Shown here: one piece after another, positions 1 to 47,323 of the stretch | How the letters are laid out: every line of letters starts with the position of its first letter | Numbering within the stretch: position 1 is the first letter of the stretch | Assembly: GCA_017394835.1 (NCBI GenBank) | Contig: JAFPXD010000003.1 | Coordinates: forward strand, 78,221-142,220 | Reading direction: 5' to 3' | Length of the DNA: 64,000 nucleotides | Origin: Clostridia bacterium | GTDB lineage: Bacteria > Bacillota > Clostridia > Christensenellales > CAG-138 | Notes under the pieces: model-generated | Told to the model about the DNA's origin: nothing | The model's input: only the letters and a program-made list of their open reading frames with translations | Databases searched by the model: none | Program-made: the position numbers and the translations under genes

Positions 1-1
1 G

Positions 2-1459
2 AACGAGCCCTACAAGGTAGAGCTTATCGAGGATCTGCCCGAGGACGCCGTCATAAGCTTCTACAAGCAGGGCGATTTCGTAGATCTTTGCGCGGGCCCT
101 CACGTTGAGAACACCGGCAAGGTAAAGAATTTCAAGCTCATGAGCATCGCGGGCGCGTATTGGCGCGGCAGCGAGAAGAACAAGATGCTTCAGCGCATCT
201 ACGGCACTGCTTTCGAAAAGAAGGCCGATCTCGACGAGTACATCACCCGCATCGAGGAAGCCAAGAAGCGCGATCACCGCAAGATAGGCCGCGAGCTCGG
301 TCTCTTCACCATCATGGATGAAGGCCCCGGCTTCCCCTTCTTCCTTCCCAAGGGCATGGTGCTTCGCAATACGCTGATCGACTACTGGCGCGAGATCCAC
401 AAGCGCTACGGCTACGTTGAGATCTCCACCCCGATCATTCTGAACCGCACCCTTTGGGAGCGTTCCGGTCACTGGGGACATTACAAGAACAACATGTACA
501 CCACCGTGATCGACGATGAGGATTTCGCCATAAAGCCCATGAACTGCCCCGGCGGTATGCTCGTCTACAAGCTCGAGCCTCACTCCTACCGCGAGCTGCC
601 CCTGCGCTGCGGCGAACTCGGCCTCGTTCACAGGCATGAGCTTTCCGGCGCGCTGCACGGCCTCTTCCGCGTGCGCTGCTTCACGCAGGACGACGCGCAT
701 ATCTTCATGACGCGCGAGCAGATGAAGGATGAGATAAAGGGCGTGGCGACGCTCTTTGACGAGGTCTATTCCCTCTTCGGCCTGAAGTACACGATAGAGC
801 TTTCCACCATGCCCGAGGATCACATCGGCACCGAGGAGGAGTGGATCGAGAATCAGGAGATACTGAAGGCCGCCATCACCGAGATGGGAAAGGAATTCGT
901 TATCAACGAGGGTGACGGCGCCTTCTACGGCCCGAAGCTCGACTTCCATCTTGAGGACTGCCTGGGGCGCACCTGGCAGTGCGGCACGATCCAGCTCGAC
1001 AGCCAGCTTCCCGAGCGCTTTGAGCTCGAGTACATGGGCGCGGACGGCTTAAAGCACAGGCCCGTCATGATCCACCGCGTCGTGTTCGGCTCCATCGAGC
1101 GCTTCATCGGCGTTATCACGGAGCATTTCGCGGGCGCGTTCCCCACCTGGCTCTCCCCCGTGCAGGTAAAGGTCATGGCCATGACCGACCGCACGGCAGA
1201 GCAGGCGAAGGCGATCGCCGCAGAGCTCGAGGCCGCAGGTCTCAGGGTCGAATGCGATCTTCGCAATGAGAAGATAGGCTTCAAGATCCGCGAAGCGCAG
1301 ATGCAGAAGATCCCCTACATGCTCATAATCGGCGACAAGGAAGCCGAAAACGGCACCGTTGCCGTGCGCTCCCGCAAGGGCGGCGACCTGGGCACGATGA
1401 CGCTTGCCGACTTCAAGGCCAAGGTCGTTGAGGAAGTAACGACCAGGGCGCGCGACTGA
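2..1459 (+). CDS. thrS: Threonine--tRNA ligase, 5'-truncated by window edge (track lists only 140..1459)
   Basis: The frame is open from nt 2 (NEPYKVELIEDLPEDAVISFYKQGDFVDLCAGPHV...). Class II aaRS core and anticodon-binding region are recognisable (FRVRCFTQDDAHIF, GTIQLD, VMIHRVVFGSIERFIGV, PYMLIIGDKE). Confidence 0.93.
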   Translation, partial: NEPYKVELIEDLPEDAVISFYKQGDFVDLCAGPHVENTGKVKNFKLMSIAGAYWRGSEKNKMLQRIYGTAFEKKADLDEYITRIEEAKKRDHRKIGRELGLFTIMDEGPGFPFFLPKGMVLRNTLIDYWREIHKRYGYVEISTPIILNRTLWERSGHWGHYKNNMYTTVIDDEDFAIKPMNCPGGMLVYKLEPHSYRELPLRCGELGLVHRHELSGALHGLFRVRCFTQDDAHIFMTREQMKDEIKGVATLFDEVYSLFGLKYTIELSTMPEDHIGTEEEWIENQEILKAAITEMGKEFVINEGDGAFYGPKLDFHLEDCLGRTWQCGTIQLDSQLPERFELEYMGADGLKHRPVMIHRVVFGSIERFIGVITEHFAGAFPTWLSPVQVKVMAMTDRTAEQAKAIAAELEAAGLRVECDLRNEKIGFKIREAQMQKIPYMLIIGDKEAENGTVAVRSRKGGDLGTMTLADFKAKVVEEVTTRARD

Positions 1460-1489
1460 TAAACGACTAAATTATCAAGGAGGTAAAAT

Positions 1490-2200
1490 ATGCCCGTTCC
1501 CACTCCCCATATCACCGCAAAGCTCGGTGATTTCGCAAAGACCGTTCTGATGCCCGGCGATCCCAAAAGGGCAAAGTTCATCGCCGATAATTTCCTTGAG
1601 GACGCGGTGCTCGTGAACGACGTTCGCGGCGTTCAGGGCTACACGGGTTTTTATAAGGGCAAGCGCGTTTCCGTGATGGCTTCCGGCATGGGCATGCCCT
1701 CCATAGGCATCTATTCCTATGAGCTCTTCAACTTCTACGGCGTGGAGAACATAATCCGCGTTGGCTCCGCGGGAGCGCTGCACAAGGAGCTGCACATCCG
1801 CGATATAGTGTTGGGTCAGGCCGCGTGCACGAATTCCAACTATGTTTCGCAGTATGAGCTGCCCGGCAATTACGCCCCCATCGCGAGCTACAAGCTCTTA
1901 AGGCGCGCCGCCGAGACCGCCGAGAGGATGGGCTTGCGCTATATGGTGGGCAACGTGCTCTCCTCCGACACCTTCTATGACGATTCCATGGGCACCGCCA
2001 AGTGGTGCAAGATGGGCGTCCTGGCCGTTGAGATGGAATCCGCCGCGCTCTATATGAACGCCGCGCGCGCGGGCAAGAACGCGCTGTGCATCTGTACGAT
2101 CTCCGACCATATCGTGAACGACGAGCCCCCGACGACCGCCGAGGAGCGCCAGGAAAGCTTCACCGCAATGATGGAGCTTGCGCTGGAGGTAGCGGAATAA
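1490..2200 (+). CDS. deoD: Purine nucleoside phosphorylase, DeoD type
   Basis: 236 aa. N-terminus TPHI...GDFAKTVLMPGDPKRAKFIA, plus SVMASGMGMPS and VEMESAALY motifs typical of hexameric PNP. GGAGG RBS lies upstream. Confidence 0.9.
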   Translation: MPVPTPHITAKLGDFAKTVLMPGDPKRAKFIADNFLEDAVLVNDVRGVQGYTGFYKGKRVSVMASGMGMPSIGIYSYELFNFYGVENIIRVGSAGALHKELHIRDIVLGQAACTNSNYVSQYELPGNYAPIASYKLLRRAAETAERMGLRYMVGNVLSSDTFYDDSMGTAKWCKMGVLAVEMESAALYMNAARAGKNALCICTISDHIVNDEPPTTAEERQESFTAMMELALEVAE

Positions 2201-2217
2201 GATCCCGATACGTTAAA

Positions 2218-2247
2218 GGAGCGAGACGCCTGTCCCGCTCCTTTTTT
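2218..2247. terminator. Bidirectional intrinsic terminator between convergent deoD and the anti-sigma-like gene
   Basis: Hairpin GGAGCGAGAC-GCCT-GTCCCGCTCC followed by TTTTTT. Confidence 0.7.
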
Positions 2248-2256
2248 ATCATCTTA

Positions 2257-3816
2257 TCATTTATAAAACAGCTTGAATTCGCCCGTTCTCAGCCTTTCCG
2301 TCATCGTTCCTTCGCTGTTGAACCGGTAGCGGATGACCTCGCTGTAACCTATGAATGTATATGCGTTCGTAGCGGGTGAATACCTTGTATAACGGATATC
2401 ATGCGTATCCCAAACGAGATCACCGTTTTCGCCGATCCTGAGTTCCGCCCCCATTCCGCCGCCGACCGAATAGAATTCTTGAGGAGCGTTCTTTTCGGGA
2501 TCGAATATCAGGAGCATTGCGTTGTAGCGTTCCTTTATCTTTTTAGTGAGCCAAGGCCTGTCGACGCCATCGGGATCGCGCCCCAATAGACCGATGAGAG
2601 GTTGGAGTTCATAATGGTTCGAGTAATAGTCCTTCAGCCATTCATCATCACTATTGATAATGACGTCGTCCGGAACCGTGTAAACGGAAAGCCAGATCCT
2701 TCCTTCGTATTCTATCACGTCTTTAACAATGCAGACCTGTCCGTCCAGCTCGATCCTGAAGCGATCCGTGATATTGCCTTCTTCGTCCGTAAGCACGAAA
2801 GAACCGAGCTCGCTTCTTTTCGAGGTTTCGAAAGTGCCTAAATAGCCGCCTCCGCTCAAGGGAGCTTTTGCCGTGTAATGATCGCTTAGTGGATGCTCAT
2901 AACGCTCGAGTATCTCTCCGCCCGGCGATACGACCGAAAGCACGACGCCATTGAAACCGATATTGCTGAATACCGCGATGCTTCCGTCATCCTTTGGGAT
3001 AAGCGAGTATATCCTTTCCCGCCTCTCGCCGAATTCGATATCCCATAAGGTGTTCCCATTCGGATCGAGCTTAATAAGCCTCGAATGGCAATCACTCTCG
3101 TCATCATTCCATTCGCCGCCGAATACCACCCCGTCCGCGGTCTCGGCAACGTGATAGACGCTTAGCCCCTCGTATTTCCGCTCCCAGATGAGCTCATCTC
3201 CGGAATGCTTCTCTATCACCATCCCCGCGAAGTCGGTCATTCCGTCTTTTTCTTCGATCAGGGATCTCATTACGTATCTGTTCCCGGAAAGCTCCGTCTG
3301 CTCCTGCTTCCAAATCATGTTGTTATTATCGGGACGCTCATCTATATAGTCAAGATCCGTAAGACGCCAACCTTTGACAGTGCCCGAAATAAGCGCATTT
3401 TCAACGATATCCGCCGTCTTATCATAGGTGAAGCTTTCGGTGGTTATATCGCGGTAGACGGCCTTGAGCTCCGTGCGGGTCAAGCCCTCGGTCGAAAGAC
3501 CGTTATCCATAAAAAACTCCTTTGCGGCTTTATATTCTTTCGCTTCAGCGGCGTAAGCGTAAGTACCGGCGCCTAAGGCGATAAGCAGCGCCAATGCAGC
3601 CGCGAGCGCCCATATGAGCCTGCGGGGCAGGCGCTTTCTGCCCGAGGGCGCGCGCTCCGGACTGCGCGAGCTTGCCGAAGCGCCCATGCGGCCTGCGACG
3701 ATGCTCGAGAGCCGCTTCACTGCGGCTTTTTCCCCCTTCTCCTCCACTCCGTCAAGAAGCAGATCGAGCTCCTCGGGAGGGAGCCCGTCTATAATATCGG
3801 TAAAGCTCTTTTTCAT
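2257..3816 (-). CDS. Putative anti-sigma factor / membrane protein with a large extracytoplasmic domain
   Basis: Its start overlaps the stop of the upstream ECF sigma gene by 4 nt (ATGA coupling). It has a short cytoplasmic N-terminus, one TM segment (LIWALAAALALLIALGAGTYAYA) and about 430 aa outside. No recognisable zf-HC2 motif. Confidence 0.5.
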   Translation of the reverse strand: MKKSFTDIIDGLPPEELDLLLDGVEEKGEKAAVKRLSSIVAGRMGASASSRSPERAPSGRKRLPRRLIWALAAALALLIALGAGTYAYAAEAKEYKAAKEFFMDNGLSTEGLTRTELKAVYRDITTESFTYDKTADIVENALISGTVKGWRLTDLDYIDERPDNNNMIWKQEQTELSGNRYVMRSLIEEKDGMTDFAGMVIEKHSGDELIWERKYEGLSVYHVAETADGVVFGGEWNDDESDCHSRLIKLDPNGNTLWDIEFGERRERIYSLIPKDDGSIAVFSNIGFNGVVLSVVSPGGEILERYEHPLSDHYTAKAPLSGGGYLGTFETSKRSELGSFVLTDEEGNITDRFRIELDGQVCIVKDVIEYEGRIWLSVYTVPDDVIINSDDEWLKDYYSNHYELQPLIGLLGRDPDGVDRPWLTKKIKERYNAMLLIFDPEKNAPQEFYSVGGGMGAELRIGENGDLVWDTHDIRYTRYSPATNAYTFIGYSEVIRYRFNSEGTMTERLRTGEFKLFYK

Positions 3817-4373
3817 TGTTCCTTTCCTCCGAACATTTCCTTTAGTCGCCCGACGGCTCTGTGAGCCCTCGTATCTACGTTCGAAACCGTCATTTTAAGC
3901 CTTTCGGCTATCTCCTTCGAGCTCTGCCCCAAATAGTACTTACGCATCAGTATTTCCCGGTCGGGATCTCCCAGCGCGAGCACCGCCTCCGCAACCGCAC
4001 GCCGCTCTTCCATATCGATGAAATCGCCCTCGAGTGAAAAGCTGTCGGCAACGTCGGGAGCGTCATCCGCGTCGATCGGGAAAGTGAACGCTTCCTGCCT
4101 CTTTTTTCGAAGCATATCGAACGCGTTGTTGCGGGCAATGGTGCAGAGCCATGCCTTTATCCCGCATCGGGCGGGATCGTATCCGTCAAGACCCAGATAG
4201 AATTCGCTGAAGGTATCGGCGACGCAATCCTCGATATCAGCCTCCGAAAAGGCGCCGCGGTAAAGTCTTGCGCGCACGACGGAATAAACTATCCCCGAAT
4301 AGCGGTCTATGAGCGCCTTCATCCCGCGGTCGGGATCGCTCTTAAGCTTTTCGAGCAGTTTTTCGTCCTTCAT
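3813..4373 (-). CDS. RNA polymerase sigma-70 family ECF sigma factor
   Basis: 186 aa. Region 2 (YSGIVYSVVRARL, DIEDCVADTF) and region 4 HTH (LGQSSKEIAERLKMTVSNVDTRAHRAVGRLKE) are present. Confidence 0.85.
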   Translation of the reverse strand: MKDEKLLEKLKSDPDRGMKALIDRYSGIVYSVVRARLYRGAFSEADIEDCVADTFSEFYLGLDGYDPARCGIKAWLCTIARNNAFDMLRKKRQEAFTFPIDADDAPDVADSFSLEGDFIDMEERRAVAEAVLALGDPDREILMRKYYLGQSSKEIAERLKMTVSNVDTRAHRAVGRLKEMFGGKEQ

Positions 4374-4475
4374 CGAATGCCTCCGTCTTTGACGTTCTGT
4401 TATCCAATGCGCAGTCTCCGCAAATATCTTACACTAAAAGCACGAAATTTTCGAGTCCTATATCGTATATTTTCC

Positions 4476-4504
4476 TTGACAAGGACCTCGGTTTTAGATA
4501 TAAT
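4476..4504 (+). promoter_or_regulatory. Sigma-A type promoter for carD/PIN-TRAM
   Basis: TTGACA (4476-4481), 17-nt spacer, TATAAT (4499-4504). Confidence 0.55.
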
Positions 4505-4592
4505 AGCATGTGGGGGAATGATTGCATTGTGCATCCGGTCCCGTGCGGACCGCATACCGCTTTCCGTCAAACTATATTTCGGAGGGGATACC

Positions 4593-5060
4593 GTGTTTTC
4601 CATCGGTGATACGATTTGCTACCCCATGCACGGCGTGGGGACCGTCGAAGGGATAGTCAGTCAGACCGTTCTGGGAGTGACTGCCGATTATTATTCGCTT
4701 AAATTCAGAGCGGGAAAAATGACCGCGCTGATACCCGTCGCCACGGCTGAAAAGGTCGGTCTCCGCACCCTGATCGAGCCTTCCGAATGCGAAAAGGTAT
4801 TCACTTACATGCAGGAACCCGGCGTCCGCGGGAGCGATAACTGGAACCAGCGTTACCGCGAAAACATGGAAAAGATGAAGAGGGGCACCGTTTACGACGT
4901 TGCGGACGTTGTAAAATGCCTGAAGCTGCGCGAGCTCGAGAAGGGCCTTTCCGCAGGCGAGCGAAAGATGCTCGCAACGGCAAAGCAGATAATAGCCGGC
5001 GAGCTTGCGACAGTGCTCGGCTCCGACGTTGAAGAGATGGAAAAACGCATTAGCGAATAA
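4593..5060 (+). CDS. carD: CarD/CdnL family transcriptional regulator
   Basis: GTG start at 4593 preceded by GGAGGGG RBS. VFSIGDTICYPMHGVGTVEGI... matches the CarD N-terminal RNAP-interacting domain. The 72 extra N-terminal residues of the 4377 track ORF span the promoter and are not coding. Confidence 0.85.
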   Translation: MFSIGDTICYPMHGVGTVEGIVSQTVLGVTADYYSLKFRAGKMTALIPVATAEKVGLRTLIEPSECEKVFTYMQEPGVRGSDNWNQRYRENMEKMKRGTVYDVADVVKCLKLRELEKGLSAGERKMLATAKQIIAGELATVLGSDVEEMEKRISE

Positions 5061-5083
5061 AACTTTTAGGAGGTCAGCAGGAT

Positions 5084-6178
5084 TTGAACAAAAAGATAGG
5101 TCGGGCGCTTATCACCGTATTCGGCGTGTTTTTCGGAATGAGCCTCACGTGGATGCTGTATAAAAATAAGGACGCCCTCGGGATCAAGGATCTTATTTCC
5201 CGGCTCCCTTCCTGGACAAACACCGTTGCCTACATCATCGGCGCGATCATATTCGGCATTATTTTTTTCATATTGGCGCCAAAGATAATAGGCTTCGTTT
5301 CCAGGTTGGTTTCAAAACTCGAAAAGAGCTCGCGTGAGCTTTCAATGCAGCAGATCTTCGTTGGGGCGATAGGTCTTCTTTTCGGTCTTATTATAGCGGC
5401 GCTTATCAGTCTGCTCATCCAGAAAATACAGATCAACGCGATAGTTATAGGGCTCGATATACTCGTTTTCATAACGTTCGCGTACCTCGGATTCAAGATC
5501 CCCTCCAGCCGCATAAAGGAGATCAACCTTCCCAACTGGTTCAAAAGAGGCGGCGAAGTCTCCCCCGTCCGCTCCGCCTCGGCAAAGCCCAAGGTGCTCG
5601 ATACCTCCGCTATAATAGACGGCAGGTTTTTCGACGTTTATAAGACGGGTCTCGTCGAAGGAAAGGTGATAGTCCCCCGCTTCGTACTGGATGAACTGCG
5701 CCATATTGCCGACAGCCCCGATCCGTTGAAGCGCGCAAGAGGCAGGCGCGGGCTCGACGCGATAAACGCCCTTCAGGAAGCTCACCCCGATACCGTTGAA
5801 GTGAGCGACGCCGATTACAAGGAGCTTGACGAAGTCGATACGAAGCTTCTTCGCCTCGCGCTCGATCTCGGCGGGATCGCGGTGACGAACGATTATAACC
5901 TCGGAAAGGTCGCCGCGGTGCAGTCGGTACCCGTCTTCAACATAAACGATCTTGCGAACGCGCTTAGGATAAACGTTGTTGCGGGCGAGCTTATCGACGT
6001 GACGATCGTTAAGGAAGGCAAGGAACCGGGTCAGGGCGTCGCCTATTTCGACGACGGCACCATGATAGTTATCGACGGCGCGGCCAAGCTCATAGGCGAG
6101 ACCGTGACCGCCGCAGTCACGAGCGTACTGCAGACCTCGGCGGGCAGAATGGTATTCGCCAAGCTCGAGGAGCAGTGA
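5084..6178 (+). CDS. yacL: PIN/TRAM domain membrane protein (YacL-like)
   Basis: TTG start after AGGAGG. Four N-terminal TM helices, a PIN domain (VLDTSAIIDGRF, TNDYNL) and a C-terminal TRAM-like beta domain. Conserved carD-yacL synteny. Confidence 0.8.
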   Translation: MNKKIGRALITVFGVFFGMSLTWMLYKNKDALGIKDLISRLPSWTNTVAYIIGAIIFGIIFFILAPKIIGFVSRLVSKLEKSSRELSMQQIFVGAIGLLFGLIIAALISLLIQKIQINAIVIGLDILVFITFAYLGFKIPSSRIKEINLPNWFKRGGEVSPVRSASAKPKVLDTSAIIDGRFFDVYKTGLVEGKVIVPRFVLDELRHIADSPDPLKRARGRRGLDAINALQEAHPDTVEVSDADYKELDEVDTKLLRLALDLGGIAVTNDYNLGKVAAVQSVPVFNINDLANALRINVVAGELIDVTIVKEGKEPGQGVAYFDDGTMIVIDGAAKLIGETVTAAVTSVLQTSAGRMVFAKLEEQ

Positions 6179-6210
6179 AGCAATATATACTCCGCCGTAT
6201 AAATTTGCTG

Positions 6211-6239
6211 TTGACAAGGGATAATTAGTTTGGTATAAT
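6211..6239 (+). promoter_or_regulatory. Sigma-A type promoter for the tRNA-Ser pair
   Basis: TTGACA (6211-6216), 17-nt spacer, TATAAT (6234-6239), about 20 nt upstream of the first tRNA. Confidence 0.6.
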
Positions 6240-6258
6240 TCGCTTGTTGTCCGAGTAT

Positions 6259-6347
6259 GGAGAGATGGCCGAGTGGTTTAAGGCGCCGGTCTTGAAAACC
6301 GGTGATGTCGCAAGGCACCGGGGGTTCAAATCCCTCTCTCTCCGCCA
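6259..6347 (+). tRNA. tRNA-Ser (anticodon UGA), CCA encoded
   Basis: Acceptor stem GGAGAGA/TCTCTCC, anticodon loop CUUGAAA, long variable arm, T-arm GGGGG-TTCAAAT-CCCTC, 3' GCCA. Confidence 0.92.
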
Positions 6348-6356
6348 ACGCTATAT

Positions 6357-6448
6357 GGAGAAGTACCCAAGAGGTCGAAGGGGCTCCCCTGCTAAGGGAG
6401 TAGGATCTGCGAAGGGTCGCCAGGGTTCAAATCCCTGCTTCTCCGCCA
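6357..6448 (+). tRNA. tRNA-Ser (anticodon GCU), CCA encoded
   Basis: Acceptor stem GGAGAAG/CTTCTCC, anticodon stem CTCCC/GGGAG with loop CUGCUAA, long variable arm, T-arm CAGGG-TTCAAAT-CCCTG, 3' GCCA. Confidence 0.92.
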
Positions 6449-6451
6449 AAA

Positions 6452-6480
6452 AAATACCACCCATTCGGGTGGTATTTTTT
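6452..6480 (+). terminator. Intrinsic terminator after the tRNA pair
   Basis: AATACCACCC-ATTC-GGGTGGTATT hairpin followed by a T-run. Confidence 0.8.
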
Positions 6481-6492
6481 TGTGCAGATAAA

Positions 6493-6653
6493 AGAAGCTG
6501 GGATTTGAACGGGCAGGCTGTGAGCGTCACCGAAGGTGTTTCAAGCATCCGGTGGATGTTTGAAAAGCGAGCAGAGGTCGGCTGCGTCCGACCGTCCCGC
6601 CCTGACCGAGGCGGCATCAGTGCCGCCGAGAGCAAATCCCTGCTTCTCCGCCA
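6493..6653 (+). repeat. Structured repeat unit A bounded by inverted copies of the tRNA-Ser(GCU) 3' end
   Basis: The left arm AGAAGCTGGGATTTG is the reverse complement (1 mismatch) of the right arm CAAATCCCTGCTTCT. The right arm continues CCGCCA, exactly as in the tRNA. Internal hairpins are at 6539-6565, 6577-6594 and 6610-6627. Confidence 0.85.
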
Positions 6654-6654
6654 A

Positions 6655-6690
6655 AATAATTAGGACGCCAAATGGCGTCCTAATTATTTT
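6655..6690 (+). terminator. Intrinsic terminator directly after repeat unit A
   Basis: AATAATTAGGACGCC-AAAT-GGCGTCCTAATTATT perfect 15-bp stem running into T residues. Confidence 0.75.
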
Positions 6691-6699
6691 GACAAAGAA

Positions 6700-6859
6700 A
6701 GAAGCAGGGATTTGAACGGGCAGGCTGTGAGCGTCACCGAAGGTGTTTCAAGCATCCGGTGGATGCTTGAAAAGCGAGCAGAGGTCGGCTGCGTCCGACC
6801 GTACTGCCCTGACCGAGGCGGCATTAGTGCCGCCGAGAACAAATCCCTGCTTCTCCGCC
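6700..6859 (+). repeat. Structured repeat unit B (near-identical to unit A)
   Basis: Perfect 15-bp closing inverted repeat, 6700-6714 with 6840-6854. Only about six substitutions relative to unit A. Ends CTTCTCCGCC like the tRNA 3' end. Confidence 0.85.
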
Positions 6860-6925
6860 GCTGCGCAGCGTGGAGCACAAGCAGCGAGTGCCAATGTGCA
6901 AAAACCAAATCCCTTTTTCTCCGCT
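6860..6925 (+). repeat. Second repeat family, copy 1, ending in a decayed tRNA 3'-end-like sequence
   Basis: GCTGCGCAGCGTGGAGCACAAGCAGCGAGTGCCAATGTGCAAAAACCAAATCCCTTTTTCTCCGCT. Paralogous to 7059-7124. Confidence 0.75.
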
Positions 6926-6928
6926 AAA

Positions 6929-7003
6929 GGTCGGCTGCGTCCGACCGTCCCGCCCTGACCGAGGCGGCATTGTTGCCGCCGAGAGCAAATCCCTGCTTCT
7001 TTC
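6929..7003 (+). repeat. 3' half-copy of the structured repeat unit
   Basis: GGTCGGCTGCGTCCGACC...GGCGGCATTGTTGCCGCC...CAAATCCCTGCTTCTTTC. Its last 18 nt are the exact reverse complement of 6697-6714. Confidence 0.8.
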
Positions 7004-7008
7004 AATAG

Positions 7009-7030
7009 AAAGCAACGGTGTTGCTTTTTT
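7009..7030 (+). terminator. Small intrinsic terminator-like hairpin after the half-copy
   Basis: AAAGCAAC-GGT-GTTGCTTT followed by TTT. Confidence 0.5.
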
Positions 7031-7058
7031 CGGCGGCCGGGTTTTTGTCACGGCCGAT

Positions 7059-7124
7059 GCTGCGCCGTGTAGAGCACAAGCAGCGAGAGCCAATGTGCAA
7101 AAAACAAATTCCTGCGTCTTCCCC
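7059..7124 (+). repeat. Second repeat family, copy 2
   Basis: GCTGCGCCGTGTAGAGCACAAGCAGCGAGAGCCAATGTGCAAAAAACAAATTCCTGCGTCTTCCCC. Paralogous to 6860-6925. Confidence 0.75.
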
Positions 7125-7255
7125 TCTGTCATTCCCTGCGGCTTTCAATTCTACATCCTCTCTTTTTGCACAGATCCTTTTGTTTTTTTCCCTTCTGTGC
7201 TATAATTATTTTACGGCGCCGTTCCGCCGCAACCAATATGAAAAAGGAGAAAAAC

Positions 7256-7906
7256 ATGAAAAGGTTTATCGCACTGCTTATCAGCGTTCTTTTGATCGCC
7301 TTGCTGCCCAATATGATCCTTGCCGAGGCGCAGTCCGAGCCCAAGGATGAGCTCATTCCCATCCACGAGGTTTATATAATGGGCTTCCGTCCCGCCGTTG
7401 CGGGCTCCACGCCGGAATTCGCCGATCCGCTTTTCACGTATGAGGGCGTATTCGATATTTACTCCCACGTCTATTCCTACTGGCATGACAATACGGAAGG
7501 ACACGATATGTTCGAAGAGCAGGTACCCTTCGTGATCGATCATGAATACAGCGAGGGATGCATGATCGCCGCTGGCGACGGCTATTATTTCGCGGAAGAC
7601 TGTGTTTTCTACATCAACGGGCACGCGGAATTCGTCGATTTTGTCATGCCGCATCAGTATTTCGATAACTGCGTATATGTTCAGTCGATCGCCTTCCCCT
7701 GCTATGAGCAGTACGTGCTCGGCGATATAAACGGTTCCGGCGCCATCGAAAGCGAAGACGCGCTCCTCGCGTTCCGCAGCGCAATGGGCCTTGGCACGTT
7801 CACCGAGGAGCAGGCTTTCATAGGCGACGTCAACTTCAGCGGCAGCGTGACCTCATCGGACGCCTTGAACATCCTCCGCGCCGCGCTTGGTATGATAGAG
7901 CTCTGA
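7256..7906 (+). CDS. Secreted dockerin-containing protein with an uncharacterised N-terminal domain
   Basis: ATG at 7256 lies 6 nt after AGGAG. Signal peptide MKRFIALLISVLLIALLPNMILAEA. C-terminal type I dockerin duplicated Ca-binding repeats (GDINGSGAIESEDAL, GDVNFSGSVTSSDAL). An extended -10 TGCTATAAT is at 7198-7206. Confidence 0.8.
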   Translation: MKRFIALLISVLLIALLPNMILAEAQSEPKDELIPIHEVYIMGFRPAVAGSTPEFADPLFTYEGVFDIYSHVYSYWHDNTEGHDMFEEQVPFVIDHEYSEGCMIAAGDGYYFAEDCVFYINGHAEFVDFVMPHQYFDNCVYVQSIAFPCYEQYVLGDINGSGAIESEDALLAFRSAMGLGTFTEEQAFIGDVNFSGSVTSSDALNILRAALGMIEL

Positions 7907-7959
7907 TCCCTGGCCTTCCGCGGTATGCCGCGTAATATCATTCTCTTTTCCGTCTTAAC

Positions 7960-7995
7960 GGGATCGCGGTCTTTTCGGGACCGCGATCCTTTTTC
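7960..7995 (+). terminator. Intrinsic terminator after the dockerin gene
   Basis: GGGATCGCGGTC-TTTTC-GGGACCGCGATCC followed by TTTTT. Confidence 0.8.
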
Positions 7996-8025
7996 ATGCA
8001 GACGCGGAGAAATTACCGTAAACCT

Positions 8026-8067
8026 AAACTGTAATTCGAATTTGAGAAAACTGTAATTCGAATTTGA
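8026..8067 (+). promoter_or_regulatory. Tandem 20-nt direct repeats (candidate operator or activator sites) abutting the -35 element
   Basis: AAACTGTAATTCGAATTTGA occurs at 8026-8045 and again at 8048-8067, a 22-nt period. Each copy contains the palindrome AATTCGAATT. Confidence 0.5.
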
Positions 8068-8076
8068 AAAAACCTA

Positions 8077-8105
8077 TTGCAATATGGCATGGCATCGTTT
8101 ATAAT
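8077..8105 (+). promoter_or_regulatory. Sigma-A type promoter of the hydrolase/GNAT island
   Basis: TTGCAA (8077-8082), 17-nt spacer, TATAAT (8100-8105). It is followed by a non-coding leader of about 420 nt. Confidence 0.55.
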
Positions 8106-8529
8106 AGGATTTAGGCCAAACGAGCCTGCGCCGCGCTCCCCAAGGAGCGCGAATGATCAGAAAGGGGATCGACCGATGTTTTTTATCGCATTATGACCTG
8201 TGCGTCAATACCCAAGTATTGACGGCGTGCAGCCGGAGTTTCACAAGAAGGGACAGAGCCGTGAAAACAAATCGCATACATTGCGTTATTTGTGATGAAC
8301 GAGCTTGATTTCTATACCCGGAAAGCTGCACACAGATCGTTTTGCGGCAAAGAGCATAGTCGGCCCATATGGGCGATCCCGCTTCCGAAAATGAGCGGAT
8401 CATACCTACGTTTGATTTTGTGCAGGAGCATTTCGCTTTTCATACAAATCGACCGCGGATCGGCAATCGCTTTGCCCGGTCCGATTTTTATATATAAACT
8501 CACGTGTTTTACAAGGAGAAACAATCATT

Positions 8530-9900
8530 ATGGATAAGAAATCATTGATGGAAAAACTGGCCCGCGCGGCCTATGAAAAGGGCGGCTTCAACGGCGCGTG
8601 GCTTTACGCCGAGAACGGCGAGATCGTATCAAAGGGTGCTTACGGCTTCCGCGACCCCGAAAACACTCTCACGATAGAGGAGGATTCGATATTCCAGCTG
8701 GCGTCCGTGACAAAGCAGTTCACGGCGGCGGCGGTAATGCTGACTGTGCGCGAGGGGAAGCTCGGCCTTGATGACGAGATATTAAAGTTCTTTCCGGAGC
8801 TTGAGAAATACAAGGGCGTGACGGTGCGCCATCTTTTGACCCACACGAGCGGCATCCCCGATTACTTCGACGATATGGATTGGTTCATCGATCTCTGGAA
8901 GAAGGAGAACCGCGTGCCTTCGGGCGCGGAGATACCGCGCTTCCTTCTCGAAACGGAGGCGGAGCCCTACGGCGCGCCGGGCGAGACGTTCCAGTATTCC
9001 AACACCGGCTACAATCTTTTGGCGGAGATTGTCGAGAAGGTCTCCGGAACGCCGTTTGAGGAGTTCCTTAAGAAGAACGTTTTCGAGCCCGCGGGCATGG
9101 AAAATACCCGCTGCTGCCATATCCGCCGCGACGGCGTTCCCTTCGATAACTACGCTCGCGCGACGGTCATCGAGGACGATAAACTCGTCGCCGACGTGGA
9201 TTCCGAGGATTACCGCGACGTGACCGCGTTCGACGGCCTGAACGGCGACGACTACGTTTTCACCAACATCTTCGATATGTTCAAATGGGACCGTGCCCTG
9301 CGCGAGGGCAAGGTCATCACGCTCGAGGAGCAGAAACTGATGTACACTCCCGGGAAGCTCAATAACGGCGAGAACGCCGGCTTTGAAGGCGATGAGGGCT
9401 ACGGCTTCGGCTGGTGCGTCAAAAACGACGAAAAGCTCGGCCTCGTAGTCAGCCACTCCGGCGGCATGCCCGGCGTCGGTACATTGTTCGAGCGGTTCAT
9501 CGACGCGGACAAGATGCTCGTCATTCTCACCAACCGCGACTGGGTCGACGCCAGAGCCTATATGAGCTTTGAAGACGGCGTCAGGGGCATGGCGCACGGC
9601 AGGGAGCCCGAGCCCATCCGCGCCGTCGAGGATATAGCGCTCAAGGATCCCGACAAGTCCAACTGGGAGAGCTTCTGCGGAAAATACGAGCATCCCGAGG
9701 ACGAGGATTTCATCATCGACGAGGTCTATATGAAGGACGGCGAGCTTTATGCAAAGGCCATCGACGGCGACGGCGACGATCTCGAATTCATGCTCTACCC
9801 CATAGGGGAGAACGAGTTCGGAAGGAAACGCGGCATGATAAAGCTGACCTTCGGCGAGGATAACGTTACTTACGGCGGGAATACCTGCAAAAAAGATTAA
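8530..9900 (+). CDS. Beta-lactamase-fold serine hydrolase (class C / DD-peptidase / esterase family) with a conserved C-terminal module
   Basis: SxxK motif ASVTKQF, YSNTGY (YxN) and HSGG (box III-like). No signal peptide. The last 85 aa or so (WESFCGKYE...LYPIGENEFGRK...) recur on three other proteins in the island. Confidence 0.85.
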   Translation: MDKKSLMEKLARAAYEKGGFNGAWLYAENGEIVSKGAYGFRDPENTLTIEEDSIFQLASVTKQFTAAAVMLTVREGKLGLDDEILKFFPELEKYKGVTVRHLLTHTSGIPDYFDDMDWFIDLWKKENRVPSGAEIPRFLLETEAEPYGAPGETFQYSNTGYNLLAEIVEKVSGTPFEEFLKKNVFEPAGMENTRCCHIRRDGVPFDNYARATVIEDDKLVADVDSEDYRDVTAFDGLNGDDYVFTNIFDMFKWDRALREGKVITLEEQKLMYTPGKLNNGENAGFEGDEGYGFGWCVKNDEKLGLVVSHSGGMPGVGTLFERFIDADKMLVILTNRDWVDARAYMSFEDGVRGMAHGREPEPIRAVEDIALKDPDKSNWESFCGKYEHPEDEDFIIDEVYMKDGELYAKAIDGDGDDLEFMLYPIGENEFGRKRGMIKLTFGEDNVTYGGNTCKKD

Positions 9901-9920
9901 AGAATAAAAGGAGAATTATT

Positions 9921-10439
9921 ATGGAAAACTCAACCGATAACGTAAGACTTGTAAAGGTGGATACGGACAATCTTGATGAACTTATCAAGCTTACCGTAAA
10001 CGACTATCAGAAAAACTTTGTTGCAAGCAACATATACAGCCTTGCGGAGGCCTATGCCACCGTCGCCGAGGGCGGCTTTGCGCAGCCCTTCGGCATATAT
10101 GCCGACGAGGAGCCGGTAGGGTTCCTGATGATAGGCTATTTCAAAAAGGACGATGAGGATGACGACGAAGAGGAAACGCCCGACTACGTTTTCGAAAACT
10201 ACCTCTTCTGGCGTTTCATGATCGACAAGGAGTATCAGCAGAAGGGCTACGGCCGTGAGGCGCTGAAGCTCGCGCTCGATTACATCCGCACCTTCCCTGC
10301 CGGCCCCGCCGAATACTGCTGGCTTTCCTACGAGCCCGAGAACGAGGTGGCAAGAAAGCTTTACGCCTCCTTCGGCTTCGTTGAAGAGCCCGAAATGCCT
10401 AAAGGCTGGGACGAGATACCCGCTCTCCTGAAGCTGTAA
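9921..10439 (+). CDS. GNAT family N-acetyltransferase (paralog set 1)
   Basis: 172 aa. Acetyl-CoA binding region WRFMIDKEYQQKGYGREALKLAL and ARKLYASFGF. An acidic insert (KKDDEDDDEEE) is present. Confidence 0.85.
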   Translation: MENSTDNVRLVKVDTDNLDELIKLTVNDYQKNFVASNIYSLAEAYATVAEGGFAQPFGIYADEEPVGFLMIGYFKKDDEDDDEEETPDYVFENYLFWRFMIDKEYQQKGYGREALKLALDYIRTFPAGPAEYCWLSYEPENEVARKLYASFGFVEEPEMPKGWDEIPALLKL

Positions 10440-12040: not shown

Positions 12041-13750
12041 ATGAAATTTTCGGAAATGCCTTATGAAAGGCCCGACGTTGAGGAGATGAAAAAGAGCATC
12101 CGCGCTTTCACGGAAAGGCTCAAAAACGCCGCGAGCTATGAAGAAGCGCGCGAGGTATTCCTCGAATACGATAAACAGTACAAGAAGGACGACGCGCCCA
12201 TAACCCTCGCCTACATCCGCCAGTCGATAGACACGCGTGATGAGTTCTATAACGCGGAAAAGGAATTCTGGGACGAGAACCTTCCCGAGATAGAGGAATA
12301 CGAGCAGGAGTGGATAGAGGCGCTGGTAGAAAGTCCCTTCCGCGCGGAGTTCGCCGCTGAGTTCGGCGACCTCATGTTCGTCAAGGCGGAGATGGAGAAA
12401 AAGACCTTCTCGCCCGCGATAATCGAGGATCTGCAGAAGGAGAACGAGCTCGTCAGCGAATACGACGATCTCATTGCCTCCGCGCAGATACCATTCGAGG
12501 GCGGCGTCTACACGCTCTCGCAGCTCTGGCCCTTTGAAAGCGACCCCGACGACGAAAAAAGGCTCGCCGCCAACATCGCCGACGGCAAATGGTACGCGGA
12601 AAACGGGCAGCGCCTTGACGAGATCTACGACGAGCTCGTGCGTCTTCGCGACGGCATGGGCAAGAAGTTAGGCTTCGGCGGCTATACCAAGCTCGGCTAT
12701 TACCGAATGGGGCGCAACTGCTACACGGAGGAGGACGTAAAGAGCTTCCGCGAGGCGGTTATAAAATACGTCGTTCCCATTGCGGAGCGCTTGAAGCGCC
12801 AGCAGGCGGAAAGGATAGGCAGGCCGTATCCCATGTATTGGGCGGATCAGGGTCTTAAGTTCCGCAAGGGCAATCCCCGCCCCGCGGGCGACGCGGATTA
12901 CATACTCGGGCAGGGAAAGAAGTTCTATGACGAACTCTCCCCCGAAACGAGCGAGTTCTTCCACACGATGCTTGACGAGGAGCTCATGGACGTGCTCTCC
13001 ACCGAGGGCAAGCAGTCCGGCGGCTATGAGAACAGTATCGATTATTATGAGCGCCCGTTCATTTTCGCCAATTTCAACGGCACTCAGGGCGACGTGGAGG
13101 TCGTCACGCACGAGGCGGGGCACGCCTTCGCCTACTGGATGAACCGCAAGCGCGTTCCCTTCACAAGCTGCGAGCCCTCCGCCGAGGCGTGCGAGGTGCA
13201 TTCAATGAGCATGGAGTTCTTCGGCTGGAGGAATGCCGAGGGCTTCTTCGGAGCGGACGCCGATAAGTTCAAATACAGCCATCTTGCCTCCGCGCTGACC
13301 TTCATCCCCTACGGCACGCTCGTGGATCATTTCCAGCATATCGTCTATGAAAAGCCCGAAATGACCCCTGCCGAGCGCCACGCGGAGTGGAAGCGCCTGA
13401 GCGCGATCTATATGCCATGGGAAAGGCTCTCCTGTGACGATCCCGTGCCCTTCTACCCCGAAGGCAGGGTCTGGCAGAGCCAGGAGCATATCTATCAGGC
13501 GCCTTTCTACTATATCGATTACTGCCTCGCGCAGACGGTCGCTCTGGAATTCTGGGCGCTGCTGCAGAAGGATGAAAAGGAAGCATGGGAGCGCTATATG
13601 GACTATACCAAGCAGGGCGGCACCCGCACCTTCACGGAACTGCTGAAGCACGCGGGCCTCAAGACCCCCTTTGACGAGGAGTGCTTAAAGGAGGTCTGCG
13701 AGACCGCCGATAAGTGGCTCGACGAATTCGATCTTACCGGGATCGAATAA
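12041..13750 (+). CDS. pepF: M3B family oligoendopeptidase F
   Basis: 569 aa with the zinc motif HEAGHAF in the expected context. The length and C-terminal helical domain are typical of PepF. Confidence 0.85.
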   Translation: MKFSEMPYERPDVEEMKKSIRAFTERLKNAASYEEAREVFLEYDKQYKKDDAPITLAYIRQSIDTRDEFYNAEKEFWDENLPEIEEYEQEWIEALVESPFRAEFAAEFGDLMFVKAEMEKKTFSPAIIEDLQKENELVSEYDDLIASAQIPFEGGVYTLSQLWPFESDPDDEKRLAANIADGKWYAENGQRLDEIYDELVRLRDGMGKKLGFGGYTKLGYYRMGRNCYTEEDVKSFREAVIKYVVPIAERLKRQQAERIGRPYPMYWADQGLKFRKGNPRPAGDADYILGQGKKFYDELSPETSEFFHTMLDEELMDVLSTEGKQSGGYENSIDYYERPFIFANFNGTQGDVEVVTHEAGHAFAYWMNRKRVPFTSCEPSAEACEVHSMSMEFFGWRNAEGFFGADADKFKYSHLASALTFIPYGTLVDHFQHIVYEKPEMTPAERHAEWKRLSAIYMPWERLSCDDPVPFYPEGRVWQSQEHIYQAPFYYIDYCLAQTVALEFWALLQKDEKEAWERYMDYTKQGGTRTFTELLKHAGLKTPFDEECLKEVCETADKWLDEFDLTGIE

Positions 13751-47225: not shown

Positions 47226-47235
47226 TGCCAATATG

Positions 47236-47264
47236 AATATAGCATTGCGTATCCGCTTTGTCAA
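47236..47264 (-). promoter_or_regulatory. Sigma-A type promoter driving the B12 riboswitch operon
   Basis: On the minus strand: TTGACA (47264-47259), 17-nt spacer, TATATT (47241-47236). Confidence 0.55.
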
Positions 47265-47323
47265 TAGGAAATGGGCCCTTCGGCATCATATACAGGCTGA
47301 CGCCCGGCCTCTTTCCCCATCGG

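Follow-up and report, generated by a model that had tools for sequence, protein, structure and literature searches.

The region behind the tRNA-Ser(UGA)/tRNA-Ser(GCU) pair in the window, by which we mean the whole 64-kb stretch of Clostridia DNA that was analyzed, is best explained as an array of about five gene-less cassettes, some of them decayed, at the 3' end of tRNA-Ser(GCU). The architecture of its units is that of a recurrent family and not a local oddity; each module comprises, in order, the segment of the local tRNA from T-loop residue C56 to the CCA (designated X), an intrinsic terminator, an inverted copy of the T-loop and T-stem (X'), a core of 100 to 125 nucleotides, and the next X. 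Our leading interpretation, held tentatively, is that these modules are gene-less site-specific cassettes inserted at the tRNA T-loop and that the portion from X' through the core to the next X, which a first-pass annotation had singled out as the repeated unit, may be a folded single-strand attachment site.

The repeats of the window (Table 1) largely agree with the description in the first-pass annotation. The two near-identical units and the 3' half-unit are present where it put them: units A (6491-6652) and B (6698-6859) are 96% identical, and the 73-nucleotide 3' half of the unit is present three times, at 6575, 6782, and 6928. The repeat of about 160 nucleotides is real, but the actual period is about 207 nucleotides because the tRNA 3' end and terminator are included. 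Closing inverted repeats of 15 bp had been reported for both full units; that of unit B is perfect (6700-6714/6840-6854), whereas that of unit A contains one mismatch (T at 6502). The half-unit does end in an exact 18-nucleotide reverse complement (6986-7003) of 6697-6714, the right arm does duplicate the tRNA 3' end (X copy 1), and all five orphan copies of that end were located. Nine matches to the tRNA 3' end CAAATCCCTGCTTCT, with three mismatches or fewer, lie in 6327-7119, seven direct and two inverted; for the whole window, 11 matches were observed against 2.0 ± 1.25 in shuffled sequences, none of 100 shuffles reaching 11. What had been taken for a second, 66-nucleotide repeat family is a genuine repeat (6855-6914 versus 7054-7113, 87% identity) but not a family of its own, being the 3' part of a third unit type (fam2) that is complete in the relatives L040, L166, and L145.

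Table 1. Features of the tRNA-Ser array, in positions of the window
Feature	Position	Strand	Basis or description
Promoter of tRNA-Ser operon	6211-6239	+	TTGACA-17-TATAAT with TG
tRNA-Ser(UGA)	6259-6347	+	Gene call
tRNA-Ser(GCU)	6357-6448	+	Gene call
X1, the repeated segment	6428-6448	+	Final 21 nt of tRNA-Ser(GCU), C56 to A76
Terminator 1	6447-6482	+	A-tract/ACCACCC-ATTC-GGGTGGT/T-tract palindrome; 16-nt arms, 100% complementary
X' of unit A	6493-6510	+	Inverted copy of tRNA positions 53-70, one mismatch
Core of unit A, structured	6511-6632	+	Recombinant
X copy 1	6633-6653	+	Exact 21-nt copy of tRNA 3' end, CCA included
Terminator 2	6654-6690	+	A-tract/hairpin/T-tract palindrome; inverted-repeat search
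X' of unit B	6700-6717	+	Perfect 18-nt inverted copy of tRNA positions 53-70
Core of unit B, structured three-way junction	6718-6839	+	Folding and covariation
X copy 2	6840-6859	+	CAAATCCCTGCTTCTCCGCC, final A lost
fam2 3' fragment (third unit type)	6860-6905	+	5' end truncated; repeat and relatives
X copy 3	6906-6926	+	Decayed, CAAATCCCTTTTTCTCCGCTA
Half-unit C	6927-6985	+	3' half of type-1 core; repeat comparison
X copy 4	6986-7003	+	Truncated after CTTCT
Second fam2 unit	7004-7104	+	Without X'; contains hairpin AAAGCAACGGTGTTGCTTT
X copy 5	7105-7125	+	Decayed, CAAATTCCTGCGTCTTCCCC; array end, host sequence beyond

The promoter of the tRNA-Ser operon is the sole promoter-like site within 6100-7300, and the scan of this interval found none inside a core or spacer. 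Each full unit, A and B, has a terminator in front of it. The terminator that had been assigned to unit A (6655-6690) is present as the second palindrome of Table 1, and in the relatives L040 and L066 this same terminator stands directly after the tRNA. A simple terminator scan flagged neither palindrome, perhaps because the T-tract counts as inside the stem.

Two pattern scans recovered 138 units on about 120 contigs, all apparently from uncultured gut or rumen Clostridia. In every unit with a tRNA gene within 150 nucleotides (71 of 71), the tRNA lies upstream on the same strand, and the tRNAs ahead of units were called intact by ARAGORN. The association with tRNA-Ser drawn in the first-pass annotation holds in the window, but the family sits behind 12 tRNA species (four of Ser, together with Pro, Arg, Gln, Met, Ala, Leu, Gly, and Glu). 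The copy that follows the core, X2, reproduces the C56-A76 segment of the local tRNA without any difference in 41 of the 71 units and with at least 90% identity in 48, and the left boundary of X falls at C56 in three core types (type 1, type 2', and fam2). One core subfamily occurs behind Ser-GCU, Ser-UGA, Ser-CGA, Gln, and Met with an X that matches each tRNA; its terminator is common to the three tRNA-Ser genes and different behind Gln and Met, and in the three tRNA-Ser copies the pair immediately outside the GGG/CCC core of X':X is C-G, G-C, or A-T, following the local tRNA. Where X2 is unlike the tRNA (L058, L059, L151, and cluster 1 at tRNA-Arg), X' tracks X1, as expected if X, terminator, and X' move as one. 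Derivation of X2 from mature tRNA was considered and rejected: at L085, where the tRNA-Met gene has no encoded CCA, X2 follows the gene sequence, and X2 often continues into the terminator, which also counts against such an origin. A role for X' as a retroviral-type primer-binding site was likewise rejected as a general explanation, the part that would pair with CCA being degenerate in most subfamilies. A linkage of the X variants to the right-hand terminator and not to the left-hand core, judged by eye in L091, fitted five of six cases, a number too small to carry weight.

The number of units varies among relatives from none through one to two or more. At tRNA-Pro(CGG), L142 has none, L050 and L107 have one, and L072 and L148 have two; in the synteny group of the window, L170 is empty, L166 carries fam2 only, L168 has one type-1 unit, L040 has three units, and the window has about five, with one additional cassette adjoining the tRNA relative to L040. 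At the position of half-unit C, the relative L110 has a full unit with a gene in front; only two gene-containing segments between X copies were found, in the close relatives L110 and L145, and in both the gene lies between an X copy and the terminator plus unit. We count this variation in favor of cassettes. Homologous recombination of one X copy with another could, however, also produce precise gain and loss, a point that we count against the interpretation of the modules as cassettes.

X' and X stand 100 to 125 nucleotides apart and pair over 8 to 27 bp. The left arm ends in ATTYGAAC, and the right arm has GAR before CRAAT; since GAR takes the place of GTT, AAC and GAR are left unpaired. We suggest that, on the tRNA-sense strand, pairing of X' with X would restore the duplex T-arm/acceptor segment of the target, that the core would serve as a compact spacer separating the two arms, and that the three unpaired nucleotides (AAC opposite GAR) would lie beside the presumed crossover. 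A recombinase acting in trans, probably of the tyrosine type and directed at T-loops, may then swap one strand between T55 and C56, and replication would complete the insertion. The tRNA would thereby gain the X and terminator of the cassette while its old tail moved downstream to become an orphan copy, and an array would result as further cassettes inserted beside the tRNA, X copies recombined unequally, and modules decayed. The architecture, its spread, the orientation rule, the covariation, the strand bias, and the polymorphism in copy number are seen in the sequences, whereas the enzyme, the point of crossover, the passage through single-stranded DNA, and any present activity of the cassettes of the window are inferred. 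A crossover in the T-loop would give a newly colonized tRNA the wrong acceptor strand, so spread from one tRNA to another would need an extra step, and this too weighs against the proposal.

Similar arrangements are known. In CTXphi, attP(+) consists of two inverted dif-like sites about 90 nucleotides apart that form a forked hairpin on one strand, and integration leaves one functional site and two nonfunctional copies (PMC3089051), roles that X1, X', and X2 would take here. CTXphi and IMEX share with our modules inverted target copies about 90 to 125 nucleotides apart and a forked hairpin of about 150 nucleotides on one strand that mimics the duplex target; unpaired nucleotides beside the crossover, tandem arrays, and a recombinase that the element does not encode are further common features (PMC3089051; PMC3442271). 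In contrast, the target here is the tRNA T-loop/3' end and not dif, and no dif-like sequence lies in the arms, which makes XerCD an improbable enzyme; the "element" consists of a terminator only, or rarely one gene, and not a filamentous phage genome, and the hosts are Clostridia with a presumptive single-stranded intermediate. Integrons, too, have cassette arrays beside a fixed primary site, each cassette ending in a strand-specific folded site of similar length that is conserved more in structure than in sequence (here by covariation, a ratio of G.U to A.C of 40 to 6, and a single-stranded DNA z score of -9.3), and the difference between the window and L040 is at the primary-site end. Arrays without a nearby integrase, termed CALINs, are also described (PMC4889954; PMC4792948), and a survey of complete genomes found no Firmicutes genome with a complete integron (PMC4889954). 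Our modules differ from integron cassettes in that the attC R''/R' consensus RYYYAAC/GTTRRRY is not matched (the left arm has an extra G, and the right arm has GAR), that nearly all are gene-less with a terminator only, ORFs occurring in L110 and L145 alone, that their cores share sequence motifs, which attC sites do not, and that no IntI was found among the neighbors within 10 kb or by tblastn of the window.

A stronger proposal, which we consider rather unlikely, is that gut and rumen Clostridia harbor an active cassette system anchored to tRNA genes, integron-like but unrelated to integrons. The tRNA T-loop would be its primary site and the tRNA-mimicking folded strand X'-core-X its cassette site; a trans-acting recombinase would insert and excise cassettes and occasionally capture genes, as may have happened in L110 and L145, and every cassette would supply the tRNA with a fresh 3' end and terminator. 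In a bolder variant, the duplication from C56 to A76 could be a target-site duplication produced by target-primed insertion of processed tRNA trailer RNA, in which case the modules would constitute a bacterial SINE-like element.

The main rival to the cassette interpretation, possible though on balance doubtful, is that the units are structured noncoding RNAs made from the tRNA promoter, by read-through of the terminator or by direct cotranscription where the terminator is absent; X':X would close a three-way-junction RNA as its helix P1, the 3' end resembling that of a tRNA would give tRNA-type 3' processing and stabilization, and the arrays would be made by duplication. We count the covariation and the strand-specific excess of G.U both for the cassettes and for this reading. 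Folded as RNA, unit B has a free energy of -84.4 kcal/mol (z = -7.1); as single-stranded DNA, it adopts the same fold at -52.8 kcal/mol (z = -9.3), which counts for the cassettes. The three hairpins named in the first-pass annotation were recovered in this computed fold, whose core consists of P2 (GGGCAG/CUGCCC) bearing three hairpins, J2/3 (UGACCGA), P3 (GGCGGCA/UGCCGCC), and J3/1 (GAGAA). Covariation among homologs, which had been proposed as a check, is present: of the 34 pairs of cluster 0, 21 occur as two or more Watson-Crick types, and in the subfamily of the window, where 96.9% of alignment cells are paired, 13 pairs have both partners altered, compared with 5.9 ± 1.6 after shuffling, none of 500 shuffles reaching 13. 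Further in favor of RNA are the excess of G.U over A.C on the tRNA-sense strand of cluster 0 (40 to 6), the series G-C to G.U to A-U at pair 59:73, the invariant sense orientation downstream of a strong promoter, and the retention of units at the orthologous locus in relatives whose YacL is just 67 to 71% identical. Conserved unpaired motifs of the core, in the junction and internal loop, are common to subfamilies (a GUUAAG/UA internal loop, GGCGUGAUAG or CUGACCGA, and CGGAG or GAGAR) and resemble the tertiary core of an RNA more closely than they do a passive spacer, which we also count against cassettes. The same applies to L101 and L049, among the few loci without a terminator between tRNA and unit, where the unit must be cotranscribed with the tRNA. 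Sequence comparison does not separate single-stranded DNA from RNA structures (PMC5737381), a further consideration on that side.

The RNA reading nevertheless leaves much unexplained, namely, why X2 should be an exact copy of the local tRNA, C56 through CCA, at 12 tRNA species, why an inverted copy is needed, and why X' tracks X1 where X2 differs. Distal copies of X have a decayed acceptor/CCA part, which hence is not strictly required, copy number shifts between close relatives, and an empty site exists. The suggestion of a structured small RNA family is upheld as to a fold backed by covariation and a strand-specific excess of G.U. The units lack a promoter of their own and usually stand behind a strong terminator, as A and B do. 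Rfam 15 offers no match, so the earlier statement that this is not a named RNA family stands for the window and for 15 related loci. At the gathering score, the window yields only its tRNAs and a distant cobalamin riboswitch, and 15 loci spanning all subfamilies yield tRNAs alone, so that the units match no family, whether tRNA, tmRNA, hammerhead or other ribozyme, riboswitch, STAXI, or any other; a relaxed search of 6150-7260 gave sub-threshold chance matches only. ARAGORN finds no tRNA, tmRNA, or permuted tRNA in the units on either strand, and neither it nor Rfam gives a mascRNA-like match. On the sense strand, the closing helix does resemble a tRNA minihelix, the tRNA-like domain of tmRNA, or other tRNA mimics, an acceptor-5'-like segment and the T-stem 5' strand being joined to the T-stem 3' strand and acceptor 3' strand followed by NCCA, as in a minihelix with a large insert in place of the T-loop; the acceptor part, however, is not conserved here, and most subfamilies keep only 8 to 12 bp. 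A hammerhead reading of the junction (CUGACCGA ... GAGAA compared with CUGANGA ... GAAA) was rejected because the spacing and the 15.1/16.1 pair misfit and no hammerhead model scores. The core hairpins, read directly, have no U-tracts and were therefore rejected as terminators. A limited literature search by keywords and sequence strings found no description of such units.

A less probable reading, which we judge improbable as it stands, is that the arrays are passive scars: double-stranded integrative elements would have inserted repeatedly at the tRNA 3' end and later been deleted, leaving att duplications and element ends shuffled by homologous recombination, with most of the "structure" consisting of terminators or chance palindromes. 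Direct repeats from T-loop to 3' end are the classical mark of T-loop-class integrases, this T-loop sublocation class of tRNA-targeting integrases reportedly having been described by Williams in 2002, and the sites at X copies are used by recombinases, which counts for the cassettes as well. At least 10 loci have foreign elements at or beside X copies (large serine recombinase elements and a tyrosine integrase island); L107 holds the tyrosine integrase island, with a 45-nucleotide direct repeat, and L013, L014, L043, and L103 hold serine recombinase islands, the large serine recombinase gene being confirmed in L014 and, as a remnant, in L103. Units also recombine together, as in the hybrid unit of L014 and in the chimeric unit A of the window, whose P2 has an A.C mismatch because its 3' strand is of the L040/L110 type. 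CIMEs are cis-mobilizable elements, gene-less derivatives of tRNA-targeting tyrosine integrase islands, and our modules share with such islands flanking direct repeats from the T-loop to the 3' end (X2 identical in 41 of 71), a tRNA rebuilt from the element copy, and tandem accretion at one tRNA. They differ in being about 200 nucleotides long and gene-less, without an integrase or a shared neighbor protein family, and in having an inverted target copy and a covarying core as integral parts, which ordinary attL/attR lack. Scars would not be expected to form a conserved superfamily with compensatory changes (21 of 34 pairs; 13 against 5.9), a strand-specific excess of G.U, or a constant X'-core-X order behind 12 tRNA species, and the intervals between X copies contain no integrase gene remnant in any of the arrays examined. 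The proposal of serial integration at a tRNA attB is partly borne out, by the flanking direct tRNA copies, the variable copy number, and the integration of other elements, but modules that are a conserved structured family behind 12 tRNA species are not random debris.

The absence of an integrase noted in the first-pass annotation was confirmed: no recombinase was found among the Pfam domains of the genes in the flanking 10 kb on each side, and tblastn of the 64-kb window with a tyrosine integrase and two serine recombinases as queries gave only matches with E values of 0.018 or more. Across loci, no recombinase is consistently near the arrays, the neighbors being housekeeping genes, which counts against the cassette interpretation. 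A conserved neighbor protein as the mobilizing enzyme was also rejected, all-against-all clustering of 1,158 ORFs giving housekeeping synteny groups only. In blastn searches of phage and plasmid collections the region had no match, and in IMG/VR the units occur as host flank only; horizontal mobility is thus putative, and this again is a mark against cassettes.

A classical MITE, that is, a nonautonomous transposon with tRNA-resembling terminal inverted repeats and a transposase elsewhere, was proposed in the first-pass annotation and is very improbable; we reject it in the strict sense. Terminal inverted repeats of 15 to 18 bp and small size are present, but no target-site duplication borders the repeats, the sequences beside units A and B being unlike (AAGAA versus CCGCC), the right repeat runs on as an exact copy of the local tRNA to the CCA, the window has a single locus, at most three pattern matches were found per representative genome scanned, the orientation to the tRNA is invariant (71 of 71), and no related transposase was seen. 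REP, BIME, and REPIN sequences are short extragenic palindromic repeats after genes, with alternating orientation and alternating short and long linkers. Our arrays share these features, but their repeats copy the local tRNA, are low in copy number, and hold a fixed position behind tRNA genes. Lastly, it is exceedingly improbable, and we reject, that the region is an assembly artifact of collapsed or duplicated tRNA flanks: several contigs of other short-read assemblies do stop within the repeats, but two independent metagenome assemblies from different samples (L001 and L002) span the entire region with 100% identity, which rules out collapse, and homologous arrays occur in many further assemblies and species.

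To our knowledge, recombination through folded single strands has so far been found mainly in integrons and in Xer-exploiting phages of Proteobacteria. Bacterial tRNA genes are the commonest integration hotspots. If the modules are cassettes, recombination of this kind would extend to Firmicutes and to tRNA genes, and the orphan tRNA 3'-end copies and the assembly breaks at such loci in gut metagenomes would be accounted for. If they are RNAs, they would represent an abundant structured class, without a match in Rfam 15, that is coupled to tRNA genes in human-gut and rumen Clostridia. On either reading, the number of copies (over 130), the range of tRNA species (12), and the clear covariation suffice to define a covariance model. 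The arrays supply multiple sites composed of a tRNA 3' end and a terminator, with a foreign element held there at no fewer than 10 loci, and insertions at X copies are relevant to the search for natural landing sites of serine integrases.

The first-pass annotation described two near-identical units and a 3' half-unit behind the tRNA-Ser pair; the repeat finder recovered both units (see the table) and counted three copies of the 73-nt 3' half. The proposed second repeat family was found as a repeat, and the true period is ~207 nt, made up of a tRNA 3' end, a terminator, an inverted arm and the core. The orphan copies of the tRNA 3' end were likewise borne out: the 15-mer CAAATCCCTGCTTCT, taken from the tRNA's T-arm and 3' acceptor strand, occurs nine times in 6327-7119 with up to three mismatches, seven times direct and twice inverted, and its matches in the whole window number 11, two distant chance ones included, against 2.0 ± 1.25 in shuffles. 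The sense strand of unit B, the second full unit, folds as RNA at -84.4 kcal/mol (z = -7.1), compared with -81.5 (z = -6.3) for the complementary strand; with DNA parameters the sense-strand fold is unchanged, at z = -9.3. The dockerin protein encoded after the array suggests that the host belongs to the Clostridia, bears a cellulosome and probably lives in the rumen.

Features of the window and of related contigs and loci from other assemblies (L numbers)
Source	Feature	Position (strand)	Basis or remark
Window	YacL-like PIN/TRAM protein gene	5084-6178 (+)	Upstream of tRNA-Ser pair
Window	Sigma-70-type promoter, perfect	6211-6239	Upstream of tRNA-Ser pair
Window	tRNA-Ser(UGA)	6259-6347	
Window	tRNA-Ser(GCU)	6357-6448	
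Window	162-nt repeat, two copies, 96% identical	6491-6652 and 6698-6859	Repeat finder
Window	Second repeat	6855-6914 and 7054-7113	Repeat finder
Window	216-aa secreted protein, type I dockerin domain	7256-7906 (+)	First gene past array
Window	Cobalamin riboswitch	47062-47266 (-)	RF00174, full-length match, 88.7 bits
L013	Putative large serine recombinase	1-1712 (reverse strand)	Translation read by eye; flank as in L014
L014	Large serine recombinase	850-2475 (-)	Pfam: Resolvase, Recombinase, Zn_ribbon_recom
L041	Type 2' unit	6100-6330	
L042	97-nt tRNA	359-455 (+)	Rfam, 58.9 bits; not reported by ARAGORN
L043	Putative large serine recombinase		Translation read by eye
L103	Large serine recombinase remnant	5546-6718	Pfam; N-terminal domain missing
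L107	10-kb island in tRNA-Pro(CGG)	100-10300 (reverse strand)	Tyrosine integrase (Phage_integrase, E = 2.8e-13)
L110	AT-rich 176-aa ORF	177-704 (+)	No Pfam match
L145	300-aa Cys-rich membrane protein	12727-13626 (-)	Weak sub-threshold DUF3795 match

A scan of one genome per species for such units yielded six real loci, all from uncultured Clostridia of the gut or rumen; among these, L040 is syntenic with the window. Viral contigs searched with both arm cores gave look-alikes with a different interior and an adjoining recombinase gene. Metagenome contigs were scanned with a degenerate pattern that allowed the T-loops TTCGAAT and TTCAAAT, and 118 contigs were returned; the total, once six chance matches had been taken out, was 138 units, among which conservation of the arm cores is by design, as the scan patterns fixed them. 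A tRNA lies within 150 nt of 71 of the 138, in all 71 cases upstream and on the same strand and usually at a distance of 48-60 nt: Ser-UGA (18), Ser-GCU (13), Pro-CGG (10), Ser-CGA (9), Arg-ACG (7), Ser-GGA (6) and, for the remainder, Gln, Met, Ala, Leu, Gly and Glu. A further form, type 2' (left arm CAGGGATTTTGCAC..., right arm ...ATTTCACAAATCCC), alternates with units of sequence cluster 0 in arrays behind tRNA-Ser, in L041, L013, L050, L053, L070 and others; it was not captured by the scan patterns, and the family therefore exceeds the 138 units counted. The L042 tRNA, ~1 kb upstream of a solo unit, may be long-armed or intron-containing.

The order of parts is always the same: the tRNA, ending in X1 (its last 21 nt, C56 to A76); a spacer, almost always an A-tract/hairpin/T-tract terminator; the inverted copy X'; a core of 100-125 nt; and X2, usually followed by a terminator. 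X' contains GGGATTYGAAC, the reverse complement of G53-C63, with 2-27 nt more that match the local tRNA, and X2 is a direct copy of the local tRNA from exactly C56 to CCA, a start common to three core types (type 1, type 2' and fam2). X2 and X1 agree at every one of the 21 nt in 41 of the 71 tRNA-adjoining units and are at least 90% identical in 48. Behind a tRNA-Met gene without encoded CCA (L085), X2 matches the gene sequence and not CCA, so that X2 comes from DNA or a precursor; an origin from mature tRNA is rejected. X' keeps its match to X1 even in units whose X2 no longer agrees with the tRNA (L058, L059, L151 and cluster 1 at tRNA-Arg), and X1, terminator and X' then form a single long palindrome, which in L151 is free of mismatches across 27 nt. 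The closing helix of the sense strand joins acceptor-5'-like and T-stem-5' sequence in X' with the T-stem-3' and acceptor-3' strands in X2, and the closed unit is a tRNA minihelix with the core in place of the T-loop. At the junction of a cluster-0 unit with the next unit in L062 and L064, the terminator is precisely deleted in some arrays, and X with the next X' makes a simple 13-bp hairpin (CAAATCCCTGTTTC-loop-GAAACAGGGATTT).

The units group into ~15 sequence clusters, most of which form a three-way junction: P1 (X':X); J1/2 AAC; P2, in which a GUUAAG/UA internal loop and a hairpin are often present; J2/3, reading GGCGUGAUAG or CUGACCGA; P3, which varies; and J3/1 CGGAG or GAGAR. Local RNAalifold analysis found at least two Watson-Crick types at 21 of 34 pairs in the non-redundant set of cluster 0, and 40 G.U against 6 A.C summed over three such sets. 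Alignment A2, of 11 sequences from the window subfamily, has 96.9% of its cells paired, falling to ~45% once partners are slid, and both sides change at 13 pairs against 5.9 ± 1.6 in shuffles (0/500); its P3 variants are GGCGGCA/UGCCGCC, CGCGGC/GCCGCG and UCGCCGCA/UGCGGCGA. In one core subfamily found behind the three tRNA-Ser genes, the base pair immediately beyond the GGG/CCC core of its X':X helix varies with the local tRNA (C-G, G-C or A-T). The sequence evidence marks the core as a structure under selection on the tRNA-sense strand; the strand bias fits RNA or sense-strand single-stranded DNA, structures that sequence alone cannot separate (PMC5737381). No family in Rfam 15 matches any unit subfamily, in agreement with the earlier failure to recognise a named RNA family.

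Contigs related at tRNA-Pro(CGG) carry no unit (L142), one (L050, L107) or two (L072, L148). Among window relatives with the YacL-tRNA-Ser-tRNA-Ser synteny, which is kept down to ~63% YacL protein identity and lost below ~56%, there is no unit in L170 (63%), one fam2 unit in L166 (71%), one type-1 unit with a 41-nt internal deletion in L168 (67%), a type 1, fam2, type 1 series in L040, and ~five cassettes in the window. The tRNA-adjoining cassette of the window (terminator 1 and unit A) is extra relative to L040, where terminator 2, which precedes unit B in the window, directly follows the tRNA. The terminators of units A and B are unrelated despite 96% unit identity, and unit A is a chimera whose P2 has an A.C mismatch; modules have thus been exchanged, not merely duplicated. 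One core subfamily stands behind tRNA genes of five kinds (Ser-GCU, Ser-UGA, Ser-CGA, Gln and Met), and in every case its X2 agrees with the local tRNA; at the three tRNA-Ser genes homology starts directly after the tRNA's CCA and the terminator AAAACGGACAAG...CTTGTCCGTTTT is shared, and another terminator is found behind Gln and Met. In two close window relatives (L110, L145), a single gene, which may be captured cargo, separates an X copy from "terminator C + unit"; this module also stands, in L046, behind a beta-lactamase-like gene and away from any tRNA.

No protein family is common to the unit neighbourhoods beyond species-level housekeeping synteny, and the units were not found in phage and plasmid collections; the sole IMG/VR occurrences are three contigs, where the units belong to the host flank. 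The first-pass annotation saw no integrase, and this held: no recombinase is encoded within 10 kb either side of the window array, and tblastn of one tyrosine integrase and two serine recombinases against the 64-kb window found nothing. At ten or more loci a foreign element is inserted between (C)CGCCA and the terminator, just upstream of the first unit; L014, L013 and L103 are among them. The large serine recombinase genes end within ~330 nt upstream of the junction of (C)CGC(C)AAAC, terminator and unit, and the L103 ORF extends into it; copies of the tRNA 3' end with its terminator thus act as attB for serine-integrase elements. The L107 island, with a 45-nt direct repeat beginning in the anticodon loop, is upstream of the unit and independent from it. 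The unit site is a hub for mobile elements.

We tentatively favour the unit as a folded single-strand attachment site, with X, terminator, X' and core as the cassette, because the architecture (functional target copy, inverted copy, ~100-nt spacer, direct copy, one-strand fold) is that left by CTXphi at dif. CTXphi attP(+) is a 150-nt forked hairpin of the single-stranded genome with two inverted dif-like sites ~90 nt apart; one strand pair is exchanged, replication completes, and the product has one functional site and two non-functional copies (PMC3089051). Integron attC sites follow the same principle (PMC4792948, PMC4889954). Top-strand exchange by a putative recombinase between T55 and C56 would give exactly the order seen: the tRNA body and GTT, followed by X and terminator of the cassette; X', core and GAR; native X and native terminator. 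All target tRNAs have the overlap CRAATCC in common, and the fold leaves unpaired the three nucleotides to the left of the proposed cut, which read GTT in the tRNA and GAR in the unit and face AAC. Such an exchange would account for the orientation rule, the C56 boundary, the exact local X2, X' tracking X1, the terminator in every cassette, heterogeneous arrays and copy-number changes, and strand-specific structure. Against it, a tRNA species colonised for the first time would acquire an acceptor strand not its own, and the conserved unpaired core motifs resemble an RNA core.

The main rival, a structured RNA made by read-through or co-transcription, explains structure and motifs but leaves the inverted and direct local tRNA copies, and the turnover, unexplained; we consider it possible, if doubtful, and compatible with the cassette, as a mobile cassette could carry an RNA. 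Passive scars fit poorly and are improbable, and a classical MITE, also a poor fit, is very improbable. The suggestion of an assembly artefact of tRNA flanks likewise fits poorly and is scarcely credible: two metagenome assemblies, independent of each other, contain the 1,082-nt intergenic sequence letter for letter, so the feature is real, and seven further assemblies break within it. Many assemblies of YacL homologues stop 0.1-0.6 kb downstream of the gene, for which the repeats may be the reason.

Keyword and sequence-string literature searches, limited in extent, found no description of such units, and a survey of complete genomes recorded a complete integron in no Firmicutes genome (PMC4889954). 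The closest systems are CTXphi/IMEX attP(+), integron attC/CALIN and gene-less att-flanked islands at tRNA genes. The finding may plausibly represent a site-specific cassette with a folded attachment site or, with lower probability, an unannotated structured RNA class. The units are abundant in gut and rumen Clostridia, can be defined by a covariance model and are open to direct experiment, and are thus worth following.
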